Shown here: positions 3,979-19,989 of the stretch, one piece after another
Numbering within the stretch: position 1 is the stretch's first letter
Layout of the letters: the number at the start of each line of letters is the position of its first letter
Origin: a virus
IMG/VR virus record: IMGVR_UViG_3300045988_163304
Span: 1 to 64,000 of that record
Strand: one strand, 5' to 3'
Length of the DNA stretch: 64,000 nt
Program-made: the position numbers and the translations under genes
The notes under the pieces: generated by a model
Told to the model about the DNA's origin: nothing
Databases searched by the model: none
Seen by the model: the letters and a program-made list of their open reading frames with translations, nothing else

Positions 3979-4791
3979 AGGTCATTGGTGTAGCGGCTAG
4001 CATAGCGGTCTCCATTTGAAAACTTAATATTATTCCATAAAATAACGTGTTAAGTGAAAATTTAATTAAAGGTTAGATAATTGAATTAAAAGTTCAAATT
4101 GAATTTTTGCGGTATGGATTTGATATTTCTGTTCCAACTTATAATTCTTCAAAATATGATTTATTAGTTGATACAGGGACAGAATTATTAAAAATTCAAA
4201 TTAAAAAATCTATAAGTAATTCAAAATCATCATTTACATTTCCTTGTACCACACAAAATGTGAAAAGTTCTTTAGGAAGTAAGCATAAATATACAAATGA
4301 TGAAATTGATTATTTTGCGACTGTATGGAATGATAAAGTGTATTTAGTGCCTGTTGATGAAACATCTTTACAAAAAACAATTTCTTTTGATGATGAAACT
4401 TATTTAATAACAAATATGTTTTCACAATATAAACGGTTATCTGATGAAGAACTATATAATTCTTCTCATAAAGAAAAATTTTATTGTAAAGACTGTGGAT
4501 GCGAAATTAATCCAGGCTCTCTCCGATGTATTCCTTGTAATAATAAACTTTTACGAATGGCAGAAAGACCTTCTAGAGAAGAATTAAAAAATTTAATTCG
4601 CAATAAACCTTTTACTCAAATAGCAAGAAAATATAATGTTTCTGATAATGCTGTGCGAAAATGGTGTGATAGTTATAATTTGCCTCGTAGAAGTGGAGAT
4701 ATAAAAAAAATTGGAGAGGAGGATTGGAATAATATTTAAGCATTTTAGATGGAAACCGCGGACCTAGGTTCGAGTCCTAGATGGCCTGCCA
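3979..4791 (+). tRNA. tRNA-Trp(CCA)-like gene split by a ~740-nt insertion in the anticodon loop (putative group I intron with a homing-endonuclease ORF)
   Basis: 5' part AGGTCAT-TG-GTGT..GCAT-A-GCGGT-CTCCA| at 3979-4014; 3' part |AA-ACCGC-GGAC-CTAGG-TTCGAGT-CCTAG-ATGGCCT-G-CCA at 4753-4791. The acceptor, anticodon stem and T-arm only pair across the insertion; the insert ends in G (omega-G-like). Confidence 0.55.
4107..4739 (+). CDS. Intron-encoded homing-endonuclease-like protein (D..QxK nuclease-like N-terminus; Cys4 plus C-terminal HTH/NUMOD-like DNA-binding tail)
   Basis: ORF lies entirely within the tRNA insertion. The C-terminal ...RNKPFTQIARKYNVSDNAVRKWCDSYNLP is nearly identical to the C-terminus of the GIY-YIG endonuclease at 10109-10894. 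Confidence 0.5.
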   Translation: MRYGFDISVPTYNSSKYDLLVDTGTELLKIQIKKSISNSKSSFTFPCTTQNVKSSLGSKHKYTNDEIDYFATVWNDKVYLVPVDETSLQKTISFDDETYLITNMFSQYKRLSDEELYNSSHKEKFYCKDCGCEINPGSLRCIPCNNKLLRMAERPSREELKNLIRNKPFTQIARKYNVSDNAVRKWCDSYNLPRRSGDIKKIGEEDWNNI

Positions 4792-5303
4792 TAGATTTTA
4801 TACACAGGAGTGATTTGTATAAAATTTTATATTTCATATTTTTACGCAGTTCGTTTTATGAAGCCAAATACTGTGGCTTTGTCAACAGCCAAGAGCGATC
4901 CACAATGGTTTCATCATGGTTGGGATAGAAATATAGTATATGAAGATAAAAATGGCGTTTTAAATGGATTGCGGGCTGAACCATTTGTTCCTCAAACATT
5001 TGAAAATGCTGAGGGATATTGCGGTCATTGCGATAAAGACCCTGTTCATTGTAAATTTATTAAAGCATATCGTGAACAATTAAGCAATCTTGATTTTGAT
5101 GATATGATGCGTCGATTCAAAAGTATCGCTAAACGAGTAGTTAAAAATGATGAAGAGCCTGAAATTGTTTTGCTCGTCCACGAAGCACCAAATAATCCTT
5201 GTTCTGAGCGCTGGCCACTATTTGAGTGGTTTAAAAAACATGGAATTGATGCCAAAGAGTATCCAATTATAAAGACACAAAAACCTAATCAAATATTTAA
5301 TTT

Positions 5304-5332
5304 TTGATTTTTATAAAAAAATATATTATAAT
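5304..5332 (+). promoter_or_regulatory. Conserved promoter copy
   Basis: TTGATT 5304-5309, TATAAT 5327-5332, then AGAAAGTTAAAGAAAG. Confidence 0.5.
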
Positions 5333-5398
5333 ATATTTAGAAAGTTAAAGAAAGAGAAATTTAAAAAATCTTTAATTTTCTGGGACAAAAAATCTTAA

Positions 5399-5428
5399 TT
5401 GATTTTTTATAAAAAATATATTATAATA
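5399..5428 (+). promoter_or_regulatory. Conserved promoter copy upstream of tRNA-Phe
   Basis: TTGATT 5399-5404, TATAAT 5423-5428, then AGAAAGTTAAAAAAG. Confidence 0.5.
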
Positions 5429-5452
5429 TATTCAGAAAGTTAAAAAAGAAAT

Positions 5453-5528
5453 GCTTGGATAGCTCAACTGGTAGAGCGTTGGCCTGAAGAGCCAAGCGTA
5501 GATGGTTCGGCCCCATCTCCAAGCACCA
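5453..5528 (+). tRNA. tRNA-Phe(GAA)
   Basis: GCTTGGA-TA-GCTC-AACTGGTA-GAGC-G-TTGGC-CTGAAGA-GCCAA-...GATGG-TTCGGCC-CCATC-TCCAAGC-A-CCA. Confidence 0.8.
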
Positions 5529-5529
5529 A

Positions 5530-5598
5530 AAGGCGTAAACAGCAAATTTATTTATATAAACATTTAATTTAGGATTAAAAGAGTTGTATACGCGCCTT
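5530..5598 (+). ncRNA. Stem-enclosed RNA element, family member 1 (AAGGCG...ACAGCAAATTT...CGCCTT)
   Basis: Closing stem AAGGCG/CGCCTT with conserved ACAGCAAATTT just inside; followed by GTATTT and then tRNA-Asn. Confidence 0.4.
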
Positions 5599-5604
5599 GT
5601 ATTT

Positions 5605-5679
5605 GGGACATTAGCTCAATGGTAGAGCATTCGGCTGTTAACCGGAGGGTTACAGGTTCGAGTCCTGTATGTCCCGCCA
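5605..5679 (+). tRNA. tRNA-Asn(GTT)
   Basis: GGGACAT-TA-GCTC-AATGGTA-GAGC-A-TTCGG-CTGTTAA-CCGGA-GGGTT-ACAGG-TTCGAGT-CCTGT-ATGTCCC-G-CCA. Confidence 0.85.
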
Positions 5680-5760
5680 GAGTGGCAACTACTCAAAGAA
5701 AATGTTGCGGGTGGTTTTGGAGTGCTTTCCATCAGTACATAAATAAAAGTGCTCTTGTAT

Positions 5761-5845
5761 GCGGGTGTGGTGGAATTGGTAGACTCGGAGGATTTAGGTT
5801 CCTCTGCCAAATGGTGTGTGGGTTCGAGTCCCACTACCCGCACCA
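5761..5845 (+). tRNA. tRNA-Leu(TAG), type II with long variable arm
   Basis: GCGGGTG-TG-GTGGAATTGGTAGAC..., anticodon arm GAGGA-TTTAGGT-TCCTC, long variable arm, GTGGG-TTCGAGT-CCCAC-TACCCGC-A-CCA. Confidence 0.75.
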
Positions 5846-6010
5846 TTGTTGATTTTACTATTTTATCAATGTTAGAGTGAAAGGGCTTCATTCAAATCGC
5901 TCAAATCGGGTTGGCCAAGAGGAGAGATAGATGAAAATAGTTTGAGGCGGAGAGTTGGAAAACCTAATAGCTATATTAGGTATACATAATGTAGCTATCT
6001 CATAAAATTT

Positions 6011-18703: not shown

Positions 18704-18794
18704 GCCGGGGTGCGCAAGCGGTCATAAGCGCCTAGTCTTGAAAACTTGTGTGAGCTAATTACTCCCGTGGGTTCGAATCCCACCCCCGGCGCCA
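18704..18794 (+). tRNA. tRNA-Ser(TGA), type II
   Basis: GCCGGGG-TG-CGC..GCG, CTAGT-CTTGAAA-ACTTG (one U-U), long variable arm, GTGGG-TTCGAAT-CCCAC-CCCCGGC-G-CCA. Confidence 0.7.
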
Positions 18795-18822
18795 GACTAA
18801 AAGATTTATAGGAGGAAAAATT

Positions 18823-19119
18823 ATGGAAAATAAACCATTATCAAGAGCCTATAATCGTGATGTATCCAAGAGAAAAGCATTAAGGAAACGTCAAATCATA
18901 CGAAATATTTATTGTTGGAGTGATAATCCTGATTATTATAATAATCTCCATCAATATTCAAAAAATAAAATTCATTGTTCATGCTCTTGGTGTTCTGAGA
19001 AAACGCGGAATAAAGGTCATCGTAGAATTGCTAAAAATTATAATCGGTCAATCAACTGGAAAAAATCTGATTTGATTAAAATCGAAGCGATGAGCGCTGA
19101 TTTGAAAGAAAATATTTGA
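18823..19119 (+). CDS. Hypothetical basic protein
   Basis: Track ORF, 98 aa. Confidence 0.4.
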   Translation: MENKPLSRAYNRDVSKRKALRKRQIIRNIYCWSDNPDYYNNLHQYSKNKIHCSCSWCSEKTRNKGHRRIAKNYNRSINWKKSDLIKIEAMSADLKENI

Positions 19120-19144
19120 TTTTTATTAAAATATATATTATAAT
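19116..19144 (+). promoter_or_regulatory. Conserved promoter copy; predicted TSS coincides with the start of the RNA element at 19152
   Basis: TTGATT 19116-19121; TATAAT 19139-19144. Confidence 0.5.
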
Positions 19145-19151
19145 ATATATA

Positions 19152-19282
19152 AAGACTTGAACAGCAAAAACTGGATAGTAAATCCACTCCTTAACTGGTT
19201 CGGTAGTTCGAATCTACCCTGGCCCACCATATGGGTCGGTAGCGAAGTGGTCAAACGCGGTGGAACCAAACAAAAGAGTCTT
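19152..19282 (+). ncRNA. Stem-enclosed RNA element with a circularly permuted tRNA-like module (T-arm, acceptor closed by loop ACCATAT, D-arm)
   Basis: Closing stem AAGACT/AGTCTT; CAGCAAA; hairpin TGGAT-AGTAA-ATCCA; GGTAG-TTCGAAT-CTACC-CTGGCCC-accatat-GGGTCGG-TA-GCG..CGC. Confidence 0.45.
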
Positions 19283-19284
19283 GT

Positions 19285-19313
19285 TTGACAAATTTAAAAA
19301 AATATAATATAAT
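19285..19313 (+). promoter_or_regulatory. Conserved promoter copy (TTGACA-17-TATAAT)
   Basis: TTGACA 19285-19290; TATAAT 19308-19313. Confidence 0.5.
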
Positions 19314-19324
19314 ATATATAGAAA

Positions 19325-19470
19325 ATGAAACAAAGAGTAAGAAAAAAACGTCCTGAACCACCTTGGTATTTTTATTTTGATACTGATAATTGTTATCGTT
19401 GTAAAAATAGAAATGGATGTGGCGGTTGTAAATTTCTAAAAAAATATATTCATACAAAACAAAAAAAATA
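19325..19470 (+). CDS. Small zinc-ribbon protein
   Basis: MKQRVRKKRPEPPWYFYFDTDNCYRCKNRNGCGGCKF... following the promoter; not in the ORF track (<60 aa). Confidence 0.3.
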
Positions 19471-19474
19471 AATA

Positions 19475-19558
19475 AAGGCTCGGTACAGCAAATTTGTGTT
19501 TTCTAAATACAATCTCGAAAAATTGCTTGAAAAATTTTTCTTATATATTTAGAGCCTT
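19475..19558 (+). ncRNA. Stem-enclosed RNA element, family member (AAGGCTC...ACAGCAAATTT...GAGCCTT)
   Basis: Closing stem AAGGCTC/GAGCCTT; followed by GTTATAT and then tRNA-Leu(TAA). Confidence 0.4.
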
Positions 19559-19565
19559 GTTATAT

Positions 19566-19989
19566 GCCGCTGTGGTGGAATAGGCAGACACAGCAGACTT
19601 TAATGTGTTTTCCACAAATGTGGACTACGAGGATTTTCGTAGAGAGTGCCTAAGAGGAAACTCTTAGAGTAGAAGTTGGCTAAAACGGCGAAGGCAAACA
19701 CAGAACGCCGTGCTAAATTAAATAATAGGTGCTAGGACAGCTTGGTGAAATGGAAACCATGAAAATTGGGGTAACAGTCCACACTGAGAGAGAAATGGAT
19801 AAATGGAGTTTGAGGAACAGCCTATTATTTATAAATGTGTAGAGACTATATACCAACCACCTAAGTTATTTGATATGGTGAAGACATAGTCCAGACTACA
19901 ACACAGTAATGTGGCTATAGTGATATAGAGTAGTACGAAAATCTGCCGACCCTAAAGTCGTACCGGTTCAAGTCCGGTCAGCGGCACCA
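19566..19989 (+). tRNA. tRNA-Leu(TAA) interrupted between U34 and A35 by a ~337-nt ORF-less group-I-like intron (19601-19937)
   Basis: Exon 1 GCCGCTG-TG-GTGGAATAGGCAGACAC-AGCAGA-CTT| ; exon 2 |AAAA-TCTGC-...-ACCGG-TTCAAGT-CCGGT-CAGCGGC-A-CCA. Insert sits at the classic cyanobacterial/plastid tRNA-Leu(UAA) position and ends in G. Confidence 0.65.

Follow-up and report, generated by a model that had tools for sequence, protein, structure and literature searches.

A group I intron and two other kinds of anticodon-loop insert, probably removed by proteins, in the tRNA genes of a phage that reads TAG as glutamine

INTRODUCTION

The DNA analysed here, a stretch of 64,000 nucleotides (nt) covering positions 1 to 64,000 of the IMG/VR virus record IMGVR_UViG_3300045988_163304 (hereafter the window), contains an array of tRNA genes ∼17 kb long in a phage that reads TAG as Gln. 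Four genes of the array, those for tRNA-Trp(CCA), tRNA-Arg, tRNA-Gln(UUG) and tRNA-Leu(UAA), are interrupted in the anticodon loop, which raises the question of what these inserts are and how tRNAs might be obtained from such genes. The tRNA introns of bacteria and phages are commonly taken to splice themselves, as group I or, rarely, group II introns, and splicing of tRNA introns by proteins is seen as characteristic of archaea and eukaryotes. The inserts of the window proved to be of three kinds: a group I intron in tRNA-Leu, tRNA-like elements nested in the Arg and Gln genes (class T), and, in tRNA-Trp, an insert closed by a long helix that takes in the anticodon (class H). Neither class T nor class H has the set of features by which group I, group II or bulge-helix-bulge introns are defined. 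They combine rule-governed boundaries, apparently functional phage tRNAs and no detected ribozyme core, they form two coherent architectures in many phages, and they are probably true introns removed by proteins. If spliced, they would represent a third route of tRNA intron removal in the bacterial world, and their boundary rules make this idea directly testable.

RESULTS AND DISCUSSION

The tRNA array and its split genes

Between ∼5.4 and 21.3 kb, 25 intact tRNAs were called by ARAGORN and Rfam, all on the + strand, one of them being the following suppressor:

16549–16620, + strand, suppressor tRNA(CUA), the decoder for TAG read as Gln (ARAGORN/Rfam)

The open reading frames (ORFs) of at least 180 amino acids (aa) in the window contain 72 in-frame TAGs. 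The four split genes, recovered by ARAGORN with its intron search, lie at 3979–4791 (Trp, insert of 738 nt), 9977–10960 (Arg, 906 nt), 15436–15632 (Gln, 121 nt) and 19566–19989 (Leu, 337 nt). Run with default settings ARAGORN misses them all, and its intron search gives Glu for Gln, Arg(CCG) for Trp, Arg(UCG) for Arg and Phe for Leu; since tRNA finders miss or mis-assign split genes, inferences on phage codon use and recoding are distorted. An earlier note on this DNA, made from its sequence without database searches, had listed three split tRNAs; all three exist, and a fourth, with the 121-nt insert, had been missed. Joining the exons of the Trp, Arg and Leu genes at the junctions proposed there produced clean cloverleafs. 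The same note held that the anticodon stem, the acceptor stem and the T-arm form only across the insertion, which is true of the first two; the T-arms are wholly contained in the 3′ exons, so that only acceptor and anticodon stems span the inserts.

The same tRNA array is found in related phage contigs of 130–200 kb from IMG/VR; loci used for comparison, from these and other contigs, bear L numbers. Intron-less alleles in related phages or metagenomes fixed the Trp, Gln and Leu junctions, and such alleles were also found in relatives for Pro, Ser and Lys. A near-identity search against deposited phages returned only stray tRNA matches. The DnaB helicase of the window shows ∼40% identity to its counterparts in Enterococcus, Bacillus and Staphylococcus phages; a crAss-like affiliation, suspected at first, was dropped because the helicase points to Firmicutes-type large phages.

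When the whole window was scanned with Rfam at the gathering threshold, zero intron families were obtained. No Rfam group II family matched any of the four inserts, and the ORFs that they carry are of the GIY-YIG and PD-(D/E)XK types. Inspection of the junctions for bulge-helix-bulge motifs found instead, in class H, a continuous helix without bulges at 36|37 and, in class T, a 4-nt/7-nt internal loop. The earlier note was right that two inserts carry homing-endonuclease ORFs (a PD-(D/E)XK gene in Trp, by its PF11645 match, and a GIY-YIG gene in Arg, by its Pfam match) and that these genes are TAG-recoded: YIG*S reads YIGQS, and the GIY-YIG and PD-(D/E)XK ORFs have five and one in-frame TAGs, respectively.

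The Leu insert is a group I intron

The Leu gene comprises the following segments:

19566–19600, + strand, 5′ exon of tRNA-Leu(UAA), ending in U34 (ARAGORN; intron-less allele L002)
19601–19937, + strand, group I intron of 337 nt without ORF, with P7 GACTA/TAGTC, J8/7 GAAGACATAGTCC and a terminal G
19938–19989, + strand, 3′ exon of tRNA-Leu(UAA) (ARAGORN; L002)

Searched with the group I model RF00028, the insert aligned from end to end of the model and scored 44.9 bits (E 3.9e-10), slightly under the gathering score of 50. P7 and J8/7 align to the model, and P9 covaries among relatives. The precursor was more stable than shuffled controls (z = −3.5). ARAGORN recovered the split gene, and its joined exons fold into a clean cloverleaf. 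The 5′ exon ends in U and the intron in G, and the intron-less allele L002, whose exons are identical, makes the junction U34|A35 unique; the earlier description of an ORF-less insert located between U34 and A35 and ending in G was thus confirmed. Nine relatives (L085–L093) have the same core, all in tRNA-Leu(UAA) directly before AAAATC and all nine ending in G, with compensatory changes in P9 and P9.x. Most of them contain an HNH endonuclease ORF, these introns being 717–768 nt long, so the 337-nt copy in the window is the ORF-less form. HNH homing endonucleases have likewise been reported in tRNA-Leu(UAA) introns of Bacteroidota (PMC13011429). The Leu insert is, therefore, a bona fide group I intron and an ordinary member of the tRNA-Leu(UAA) lineage: it shares with the bacterial and plastid intron (IC3-type lineage) the site, the U-ending 5′ exon, the terminal G and the P3–P9 core motifs, and it differs in residing in a phage tRNA array and in scoring 44.9 against a gathering score of 50.

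At the gathering threshold RF00028 missed every relative of the Leu intron, and it is reported to miss some tRNA introns ('36/37 tRNA introns'; PMC13011429). A negative result from RF00028 alone is hence weak evidence; it reflects an insensitive model and does not make group I absent. The earlier note had called all its inserts group-I-like and had suggested an Rfam group I search of them; this search matched Leu but neither Trp nor Arg, even at E ≤ 10, and the junction residues of the latter two are also wrong for group I. It could be argued that all the inserts are nonetheless group I introns, the Trp and Arg cores being too divergent, or too interrupted by ORFs, for a model that misses clear relatives of the Leu intron. 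GIY-YIG and PD-(D/E)XK genes are indeed typical group I passengers, I-Ssp6803I being found in the group I intron of a tRNA-fMet gene (PMC1995217). The structures of the other inserts, examined below, make this view highly improbable.

Two further observations concern group I introns in large phages. The P7/P3/P8 core of the Leu intron (19826–19904) is 78.6% identical to an unannotated stretch of Prevotella Lak-B megaphages (MK250020 and others), which suggests that related group I introns are present in Lak-B genomes. In addition, a 232-kb viral contig contains a group-I-like intron in tRNA-Asn(GUU) at 35|36 (L091, 1182–1855), in which U is the last base of the 5′ exon and G that of the intron, and a J8/7-like segment reads AAAGACAAAGTCC; this site has been reported as typical of Patescibacteria (PMC13011429).

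The Trp insert is closed by a helix that includes the anticodon

The segments of the Trp gene are the following:

3979–4014, + strand, 5′ exon of tRNA-Trp(CCA), positions 1–36 (ARAGORN; identical to the intron-less L024 allele)
4015–4752, + strand, class H insert of 738 nt between A36 and A37, made up of a 5′ untranslated region of 32 nt, an ORF and 13 nt after the stop
4047–4739, + strand, gene for a putative PD-(D/E)XK homing endonuclease (I-Ssp6803I family), with a GTG start and a C-terminal zinc-ribbon/helix-turn-helix (HTH) tail
4753–4791, + strand, 3′ exon of tRNA-Trp(CCA) including CCA (ARAGORN; intron-less allele)

Intron-less tRNA-Trp(CCA) genes with near-identical flanks occur in L024 (contig _140174) and L017, where 75/75 and 74/75 positions, respectively, are identical to the joined exons. 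These alleles fix the junction at A36|A37 and, with the ARAGORN call, substantiate the Trp(CCA)-like tRNA with a 738-nt insert that had been proposed. The ORF had been placed at 4107–4739 and credited with the same tail as the GIY-YIG enzyme. The tail is in fact common to the PD-(D/E)XK and GIY-YIG enzymes (49% identity over 94 aa, E 9e-28); the start, however, is the GTG at 4047, reached by extending the frame through an in-frame TAG (=Gln) at 4074, and the resulting N-terminus aligns with those of homologues. The protein contains a PDDEXK_5 domain (PF11645; E 1.6e-15, 57.8 bits, cut-off 26.1), its profile matches PDB 2OST (E 3.1e-13) and the D...QxK motif is conserved. By these matches it is a PD-(D/E)XK homing endonuclease of the I-Ssp6803I family, predicted to cleave DNA.

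The RNA of the insert is dominated by a long closing helix in which 4011–4036 pairs with 4726–4753. The final three bases of the insert, UGG, pair with the anticodon CCA, nine of the nine junction positions being paired; the energy of the duplex has a z of −5.6, and none of 300 shuffled sequences was as stable. A profile of three proteins of the Trp-ORF type found 36 loci, mostly inside split tRNAs, with a junction that fits 36|37 throughout. Considering these relatives as well, the last three bases of the insert can pair with the anticodon in seven isotypes, as follows (anticodon/insert end): Trp, CCA/UGG; Ser, GCU/AGC; Asp, GUC/GGC; Asn, GUU/AGC or AUC; Pro, UGG/CUG; Gln, UUG/CAA; Lys, UUU/AAA. 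Eight or nine of the nine junction positions are paired in the Trp, Ser, Asn, Asp, Pro and Gln inserts, and likewise in Lys. The helix runs on into the insert by means of differing, mutually complementary sequences, and its energy lies mostly 3–7 standard deviations below that of shuffled controls (z mostly −3 to −7). Since the end of the insert pairs with the anticodon, both junctions are opposed in a continuous duplex with an offset of 3 bp, and cuts at these sites would leave 3-nt 3′ overhangs. Why the insert end should co-vary with the anticodon is not apparent if only DNA is considered. A target-site duplication was considered as its source and rejected, because a staggered cut followed by fill-in generates a direct repeat, not an inverted one. 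As far as our literature searches found, class H is undescribed.

Little room is left in class H for a ribozyme. The non-coding RNA amounts to ∼45 nt (32 + 13) in the Trp insert and to ∼35–50 nt in the homologous inserts of relatives (including Ser and Asn), compared with ∼205 nt outside the ORF in the group I intron of Synechocystis tRNA-fMet, which encodes I-Ssp6803I (655 nt, with an ORF of 150 aa; PMC1995217). Third-codon-position (synonymous-site) identity is flat along the insert ORFs, so no RNA core is concealed within the coding sequence. The Trp insert gave no match to RF00028, or to any other Rfam family, at E ≤ 10, and its 5′ exon ends in A36 and not in U, though the insert does end in G. 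Class H thus resembles the Synechocystis intron in drawing its enzyme from the I-Ssp6803I family (PF11645; PDB 2OST) and in its location in a tRNA anticodon loop, and differs from it in having ∼35–50 nt of RNA without group I features in place of ∼205 nt of ribozyme RNA.

The density of inserts can be extreme: one phage (L041, 475–2889) has three consecutive split tRNAs, two of them with class H inserts, in Gln(UUG) (830 nt) and Asn(GUU) (467 nt), and the third, Glu(UUC), with an ORF-bearing class T insert of 862 nt.

The Gln and Arg inserts are tRNA-like elements

The two genes with class T inserts are composed as follows:

15436–15470, + strand, 5′ exon of tRNA-Gln(UUG) (Rfam tRNA; intron-less alleles L125 and L127)
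15471–15591, + strand, class T insert of 121 nt (14 orthologs, two variants)
15592–15632, + strand, 3′ exon of tRNA-Gln(UUG) (intron-less alleles)
9977–10012, + strand, 5′ exon of tRNA-Arg through C35 (preferred junction), with A20 in the D-loop (ARAGORN)
10013–10918, + strand, class T insert of 906 nt, a nested tRNA-like cloverleaf
10109–10894, + strand, GIY-YIG homing endonuclease gene with five in-frame TAGs (Pfam, phrog_7168)
10919–10960, + strand, 3′ exon of tRNA-Arg from U36 onward, ending in CCA (ARAGORN)

The Rfam tRNA model spans the Gln insert at 43.1 bits. Two metagenome contigs (L125 and L127) hold the uninterrupted gene, and all six matches read CTTTGAC, which rules out Glu(UUC), the reading given by ARAGORN, and makes the gene a tRNA-Gln(UUG). 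The insert is closed by an acceptor-like stem (CGAGAAA/TTTCTCG) and contains three internal hairpins, the last of them T-arm-like (ATGAG TGCAAGT CTCAT), followed by the tail CCCT. Its 14 orthologs fall into two variants that differ by 10 doubly compensated pairs, all within the four inner helices; 98% of the cells of the alignment are paired, compared with 31–43% when the partners are slid. The junction and loop motifs GTTAAATGGGTT, GGGTTAAGTAG and AAGTTCTGTTAGTAGG are invariant, and unpaired motifs diverge by 20% as against 46% at paired positions, a degree of conservation that suggests an extra function. This closed, four-helix, cloverleaf-like fold of 121 nt is below the ∼200 nt needed for a group I intron and ends in T or C; searched in context and isolated, it gave no RF00028 match at E ≤ 10 and no Rfam family. 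The variant-B split tRNA-Gln is also carried by L132 (CAMELE010000001.1, 163,874 bp, a metagenome-assembled genome labelled 'uncultured Mollicutes'), which is probably the phage genome itself and may be a hint as to the host.

The conserved motifs of the Gln insert could also be those of a small self-cleaving or self-ligating ribozyme that removes the inserts, and a RAGATH-1 hammerhead ribozyme does occur in a related tRNA array (L092, 5710–5801, − strand; 65.2 bits, gathering score 56.3). The Trp, Arg and Gln inserts, however, match no Rfam ribozyme family, the Gln motifs are absent from the other class T members, and class H has almost no non-coding RNA in which a ribozyme might lie. Removal by a ribozyme of this type is thus improbable.

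In the Arg insert the arms of a tRNA can be recognised: the acceptor stem (GCTAAAT/ATTTAGC), a D-arm (10022–10037), an anticodon-like stem (TGGAC, 10039–10043, with GTCTA, 10882–10886) and a T-arm with a canonical T-loop (ATAAG TTCAAAT CTTAT, 10891–10907), followed by ATTTAGC and by a discriminator T plus CCA (10915–10918). Acceptor and T-stem are paired at 12/12 positions and the tail is 4 nt long; when 7 nt were substituted for the ORF-bearing loop (10044–10881), ARAGORN returned a perfect four-arm cloverleaf. The full GIY-YIG endonuclease noted earlier at 10109–10894 was upheld by PF01541 (E 2.8e-8, 34.4 bits, cut-off 22.6) and phrog_7168 (1.5e-36); it has HTH domains and requires TAG to be read as Gln. 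It lies in the 'anticodon loop' of the mimic, its 3′ end overlapping the inner stem and the T-arm. Judged from sequence, the nesting is double: a GIY-YIG gene has colonised the 'anticodon loop' of a tRNA mimic, and the mimic in turn occupies the anticodon loop of tRNA-Arg. An ortholog whose endonuclease is 90% identical (L069) shows a compensatory change from G-C to A-T at the outer acceptor pair 4:69, across a 907-nt insert, and the inner stem of the insert is also compensated, although that strand is coding sequence. The Arg insert had no RF00028 match at E ≤ 10; its 5′ exon ends in C35 (or G36), not U, and the insert in A (or T), not G.

The boundaries of class T follow a simple rule. Its members share a frame made up of a 7-bp acceptor-like stem starting at +1, a T-arm stacked on it (stem of 5 bp, loop of 7 nt) and an N-CCA-like tail of 4 nt, the last base of which is the end of the insert. 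In a rule-based scan in which acceptor and T-stem pairs were scored out of 12 and tails of 2–6 nt were allowed, six families were recognised, each with 11–12 of the 12 pairs and always with 4 nt as the best tail length; a seventh was found in L089. They include inserts of 87 nt in Pro (L003; 35.1 bits on the Rfam tRNA model, gathering score 29), of 61 nt (L066) and 112 nt (L089) in Lys(UUU), the insert of tRNA-Glu in L041 and, in what is probably a suppressor tRNA (L039), a minihelix alone, of 45 nt. What all members have in common is the 12-bp acceptor/T-arm stack, the T-loop and the N-CCA-like tail. The two Lys cases are decisive here: the host anticodon arm equals that of the intact tRNA-Lys of the window, so the boundaries are unambiguous, and they coincide with +1 and A76 of the mimic. 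One insert lies at 34|35 of its host tRNA and the other at 35|36, so that the boundaries track the tRNA-like ends of the insert, not a fixed host position.

Applied to Arg, this rule gives an insert of 10013–10918, a junction at C35|U36 and a spliced loop CUUCUAA, that is, Arg(UCU). An intron-less Arg allele was sought in viral contigs and in all collected loci and was not found; the arguments that bear on UCU versus UCG are thus synteny, codon use and the boundary rule of class T. Relatives have an intact Arg(TCT) in the syntenic slot, and the window has no other Arg(UCU). AGA and AGG are used 120 times with no other cognate phage tRNA, and for CGA there is already Arg(ACG). Splicing would thus probably yield Arg(UCU) (C35|U36), rather than Arg(UCG) (G36|A37). 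The tRNA-Arg(UCG) with an insert of ∼900 nt at 9977–10970 that had been reported is accordingly a split gene, as claimed, with an insert of 906 nt; its end moves to 10960 and its anticodon is more likely UCU.

Taken over all the inserts, 5′ exons end in A, C and G as well as in U, and the inserts themselves end in A, C, G or T. RF00028 found nothing at E ≤ 10 in Trp, Arg or Gln even in short windows, the class T inserts of 45, 61 and 87 nt are far below any group I core size, and the RNA parts of classes T and H show another conserved architecture. It is on these grounds that a group I identity for every insert is so improbable.

Whether class T elements are tRNAs is a different matter. The Pro insert passes the Rfam threshold, ARAGORN calls the Arg insert once the ORF loop is taken out, and the Gln insert has no match. 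None has a normal anticodon arm, and class T members are therefore tRNA-like elements, not tRNAs. Class T corresponds to the 'enigmatic' introns that 'may encode another tRNA' in papers on Lak megaphages and jumbo phages (PMC6784885; PMC13037316). As in those recoded phages, class T occurs here in a stop-codon-recoded phage with a large tRNA array; unlike the present case, those reports are descriptive and contain no boundary rule, nested endonuclease genes, class H or mechanism. Literature searches found no mechanistic treatment of such phage tRNA introns.

That phrase, together with the score of the Pro insert and the strongly conserved unpaired motifs of the Gln insert, which hint at an extra function, would fit a reading in which class T inserts are nested tRNA or tRNA-like genes set free by RNase P and 3′ processing as independent products (decoy or regulatory tRNA-like RNAs), the outer tRNA being sacrificed or left as halves. 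We consider this unlikely, given the lack of a normal anticodon arm in every class T member, the reduction of the 45-nt member to a bare minihelix and the strong constraint on the outer exons.

The split tRNAs appear to be functional

Between the two variants of the split Gln gene the exons differ by 4.2% and the insert by 30.8%, the exons being thus ∼7-fold more conserved, and this gene is the only tRNA-Gln of these arrays. Class H inserts, too, are surrounded by intact cloverleafs in many tRNAs for Asn, Pro and Trp that have otherwise diverged. Comparative evidence hence favours functional host tRNAs, and if they are functional, the inserts must be removed from the pre-tRNA.

The opposite possibility is that class T and class H inserts are not spliced and are selfish DNA that inactivates dispensable phage tRNA genes, the host supplying the tRNAs. 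The presence or absence of the Trp insert in near-identical genomes, the frequent dispensability of phage tRNAs and the fact that the splicing enzyme is only a candidate are compatible with it. The conservation of the Gln exons in the sole tRNA-Gln of the array, the compensatory outer acceptor change across the Arg insert of L069 and the dozens of diverged host tRNAs with all stems intact around class H are not what it would lead one to expect; nor is the co-variation of the last three bases of class H with the anticodon in seven isotypes, which would be purposeless without a role at the RNA level. Disruption by unspliced inserts is in our view unlikely, if somewhat less so than release of class T as a separate product.

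A possible route of excision

The inserts of classes T and H are probably genuine introns whose removal depends on proteins, and we infer the following mechanism. The Leu intron would self-splice. Class T and class H inserts would be excised by protein endonucleases leaving 3′-OH and 5′-phosphate ends, and the nicked anticodon loop would then be sealed by an ATP-dependent RNA ligase of the phage. At class T inserts the cuts would correspond to the normal maturation of tRNA ends, by RNase P at +1 and by an RNase Z-type activity after the N-CCA tail. The stack of acceptor and T-arm, the T-loop and the tail are the minimal recognition unit for RNase P and tRNA 3′-end enzymes, and the class T splice sites coincide with the two ends that RNase P and 3′-processing enzymes create. 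Both RNase P and RNase Z leave 3′-OH and 5′-phosphate, so the exon halves could be sealed directly by an ATP-dependent RNA ligase. RNase P was also considered for the 3′ cut and rejected on geometry. For class H, the cut would be made by a duplex-specific nuclease with a 3-nt 3′ stagger, candidates being the PD-(D/E)XK enzyme of the insert itself or a host RNase; RNase III is disfavoured because the stagger is 3 nt and not 2. I-Ssp6803I is said to leave a 3-nt 3′ overhang on DNA; if it does, the helix of the pre-tRNA would be the homing site copied into RNA and cut at matching positions, a point that is not used as evidence here.

The window encodes a candidate sealing enzyme within an RNA 'heal-and-seal' cassette (35224–39063):

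35224–36594, + strand, putative ATP-dependent RNA ligase, DRB0094/Rnl5-like (phrog_968, TIGR02306, PF09414)
37805–38308, + strand, polynucleotide-kinase-like P-loop protein (AAA_33, 2.4e-22; phrog_505)
38308–39063, + strand, metallophosphoesterase (Metallophos_2; phrog_547)

The ligase matches phrog_968 over its full length (1e-62), TIGR02306 below the equivalog cut-off (4.5e-10) and PF09414 at 25.4 bits against a cut-off of 27 (1.8e-5), with no PDB sequence match; on these grounds it is a candidate for joining the exon halves. A second metallophosphatase is encoded at 29166–29906. Among 19 scanned ORFs, a subset of those in the window, none matched EndA (tRNA_int_endo), and a PIN+PhoH protein (43132–44385) is a generic RNase candidate.

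Several points weigh against this account. The cutting enzymes proposed are candidates. Near-identical genomes are polymorphic for the Trp insert, which could therefore be a recent, tolerated disruption. The covariation of the Gln insert comes essentially from one deep split between two variants, and the 121-nt insert gives no tRNA match with Rfam or ARAGORN. The class T tail is not strictly N-CCA (CCCU, UCCU and CUCU in Gln; ACUA in Pro), and the Arg anticodon, UCU or UCG, is not proven. Co-occurrence of the ligase with the inserts was seen in close relatives, the only ones that the scan reached, and RNA-repair cassettes are common in phages for other reasons. Finally, CCA is generally considered to inhibit the RNase Z of Firmicutes, a difficulty for the 3′ cut envisaged here.

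With these points taken into account, we put at about even chances the joint proposition that there are three kinds of insert, that the host tRNAs are functional, that the Leu intron self-splices and that class T and class H are cut by proteins and sealed by a ligase. A more specific version is attractive but should be regarded as tentative and rather doubtful: classes T and H would be two uncharacterised, protein-dependent classes of tRNA intron in recoded phages, the former hijacking RNase P/RNase Z-like processing together with a ligase, the latter forming an RNA duplex that imitates a DNA homing site with a 3-nt stagger and is possibly cut by its own PD-(D/E)XK enzyme, with homing genes colonising both as they do group I introns.

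Comparison with other systems

Like the introns of archaea and eukaryotes, which are removed by EndA/Sen plus a ligase, classes T and H would need an endonuclease and a ligase. Class H further recalls bulge-helix-bulge introns in its pairing of anticodon and intron and in the relative polarity of the cut sites. It differs from them in lacking 3-nt bulges and a 4-bp central helix; the sites of the phage inserts are 36|37 or within 34–36, not 37|38, and the setting is bacterial or phage. Precedents exist for the separate steps envisaged for class T: tRNA-like structures such as the MALAT1 mascRNA are released by RNase P and RNase Z, and Pnkp and Rnl1 of phage T4 repair nicks in anticodon loops. 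The proposed pathway would, by analogy, combine end cutting of the mascRNA type with anticodon-loop sealing of the T4 Pnkp/Rnl1 type (3′-OH, 5′-phosphate). To our knowledge, the cutting of a tRNA mimic followed by anticodon-loop sealing has never been shown to be a pathway of intron removal. If classes T and H are spliced, the 'enigmatic' tRNA introns of Lak and jumbo phages would be accounted for, and phage RNA ligases and repair cassettes would have a housekeeping role.

The insert endonucleases also invite comparison with SegB of phage T4, a GIY-YIG endonuclease whose free-standing gene belongs to a cluster of tRNA genes (PMC2330249). Like SegB they target phage tRNA regions; unlike SegB, which lies between tRNA genes, they are sited inside anticodon loops. 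The window also has a SegB-like arrangement, with free-standing HNH (13101–13658) and GIY-YIG (16702–17328) genes between tRNAs, the latter starting ∼80 nt after the suppressor tRNA(CUA).

Other features of the array

Three orphan elements resembling the 3′ part of a tRNA are found on the + strand at 12158–12240, 15112–15182 and 19135–19232, uncalled by ARAGORN and Rfam. Each has a hairpin, a T-arm (GAAGG TTCGAGT CCTTC; ACAGG TTCAAAT CCTGT; GGTAG TTCGAAT CTACC), a 7-nt strand like the 3′ side of an acceptor stem, and a tail, AACA, ACTA or ACCA. They start just past ORF stops (12160, 15113 and 19119) and share the motif ATAAAG(A/G)C...(A/G)CAGCAA; no 5′ acceptor partner was found for any of them within 3 kb. 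They could be processing signals that release the mRNAs embedded in the array, tRNA remnants or halves of trans-split tRNAs.

Among the intact genes, a tRNA at 8049–8118 (Rfam, 35.8 bits), 7 nt after tRNA-Met, was not called by ARAGORN, and a tRNA-Phe with the unusual anticodon AAA was called by ARAGORN at 8262–8334. The array also harbours a peptidase C39-like gene (9145–9642) and a full-length gene of the sodium:dicarboxylate symporter family (PF00375, 1.9e-91; 10985–12160), a transporter being an unusual phage cargo. An IceA-like (NlaIII-type) endonuclease homologue (PF05315, 5.9e-25) flanked by two ORFs occupies the region 21416–23337, adjoined by a gene for a DUF2828/DUF7788 protein of 509 aa (23455–24984).

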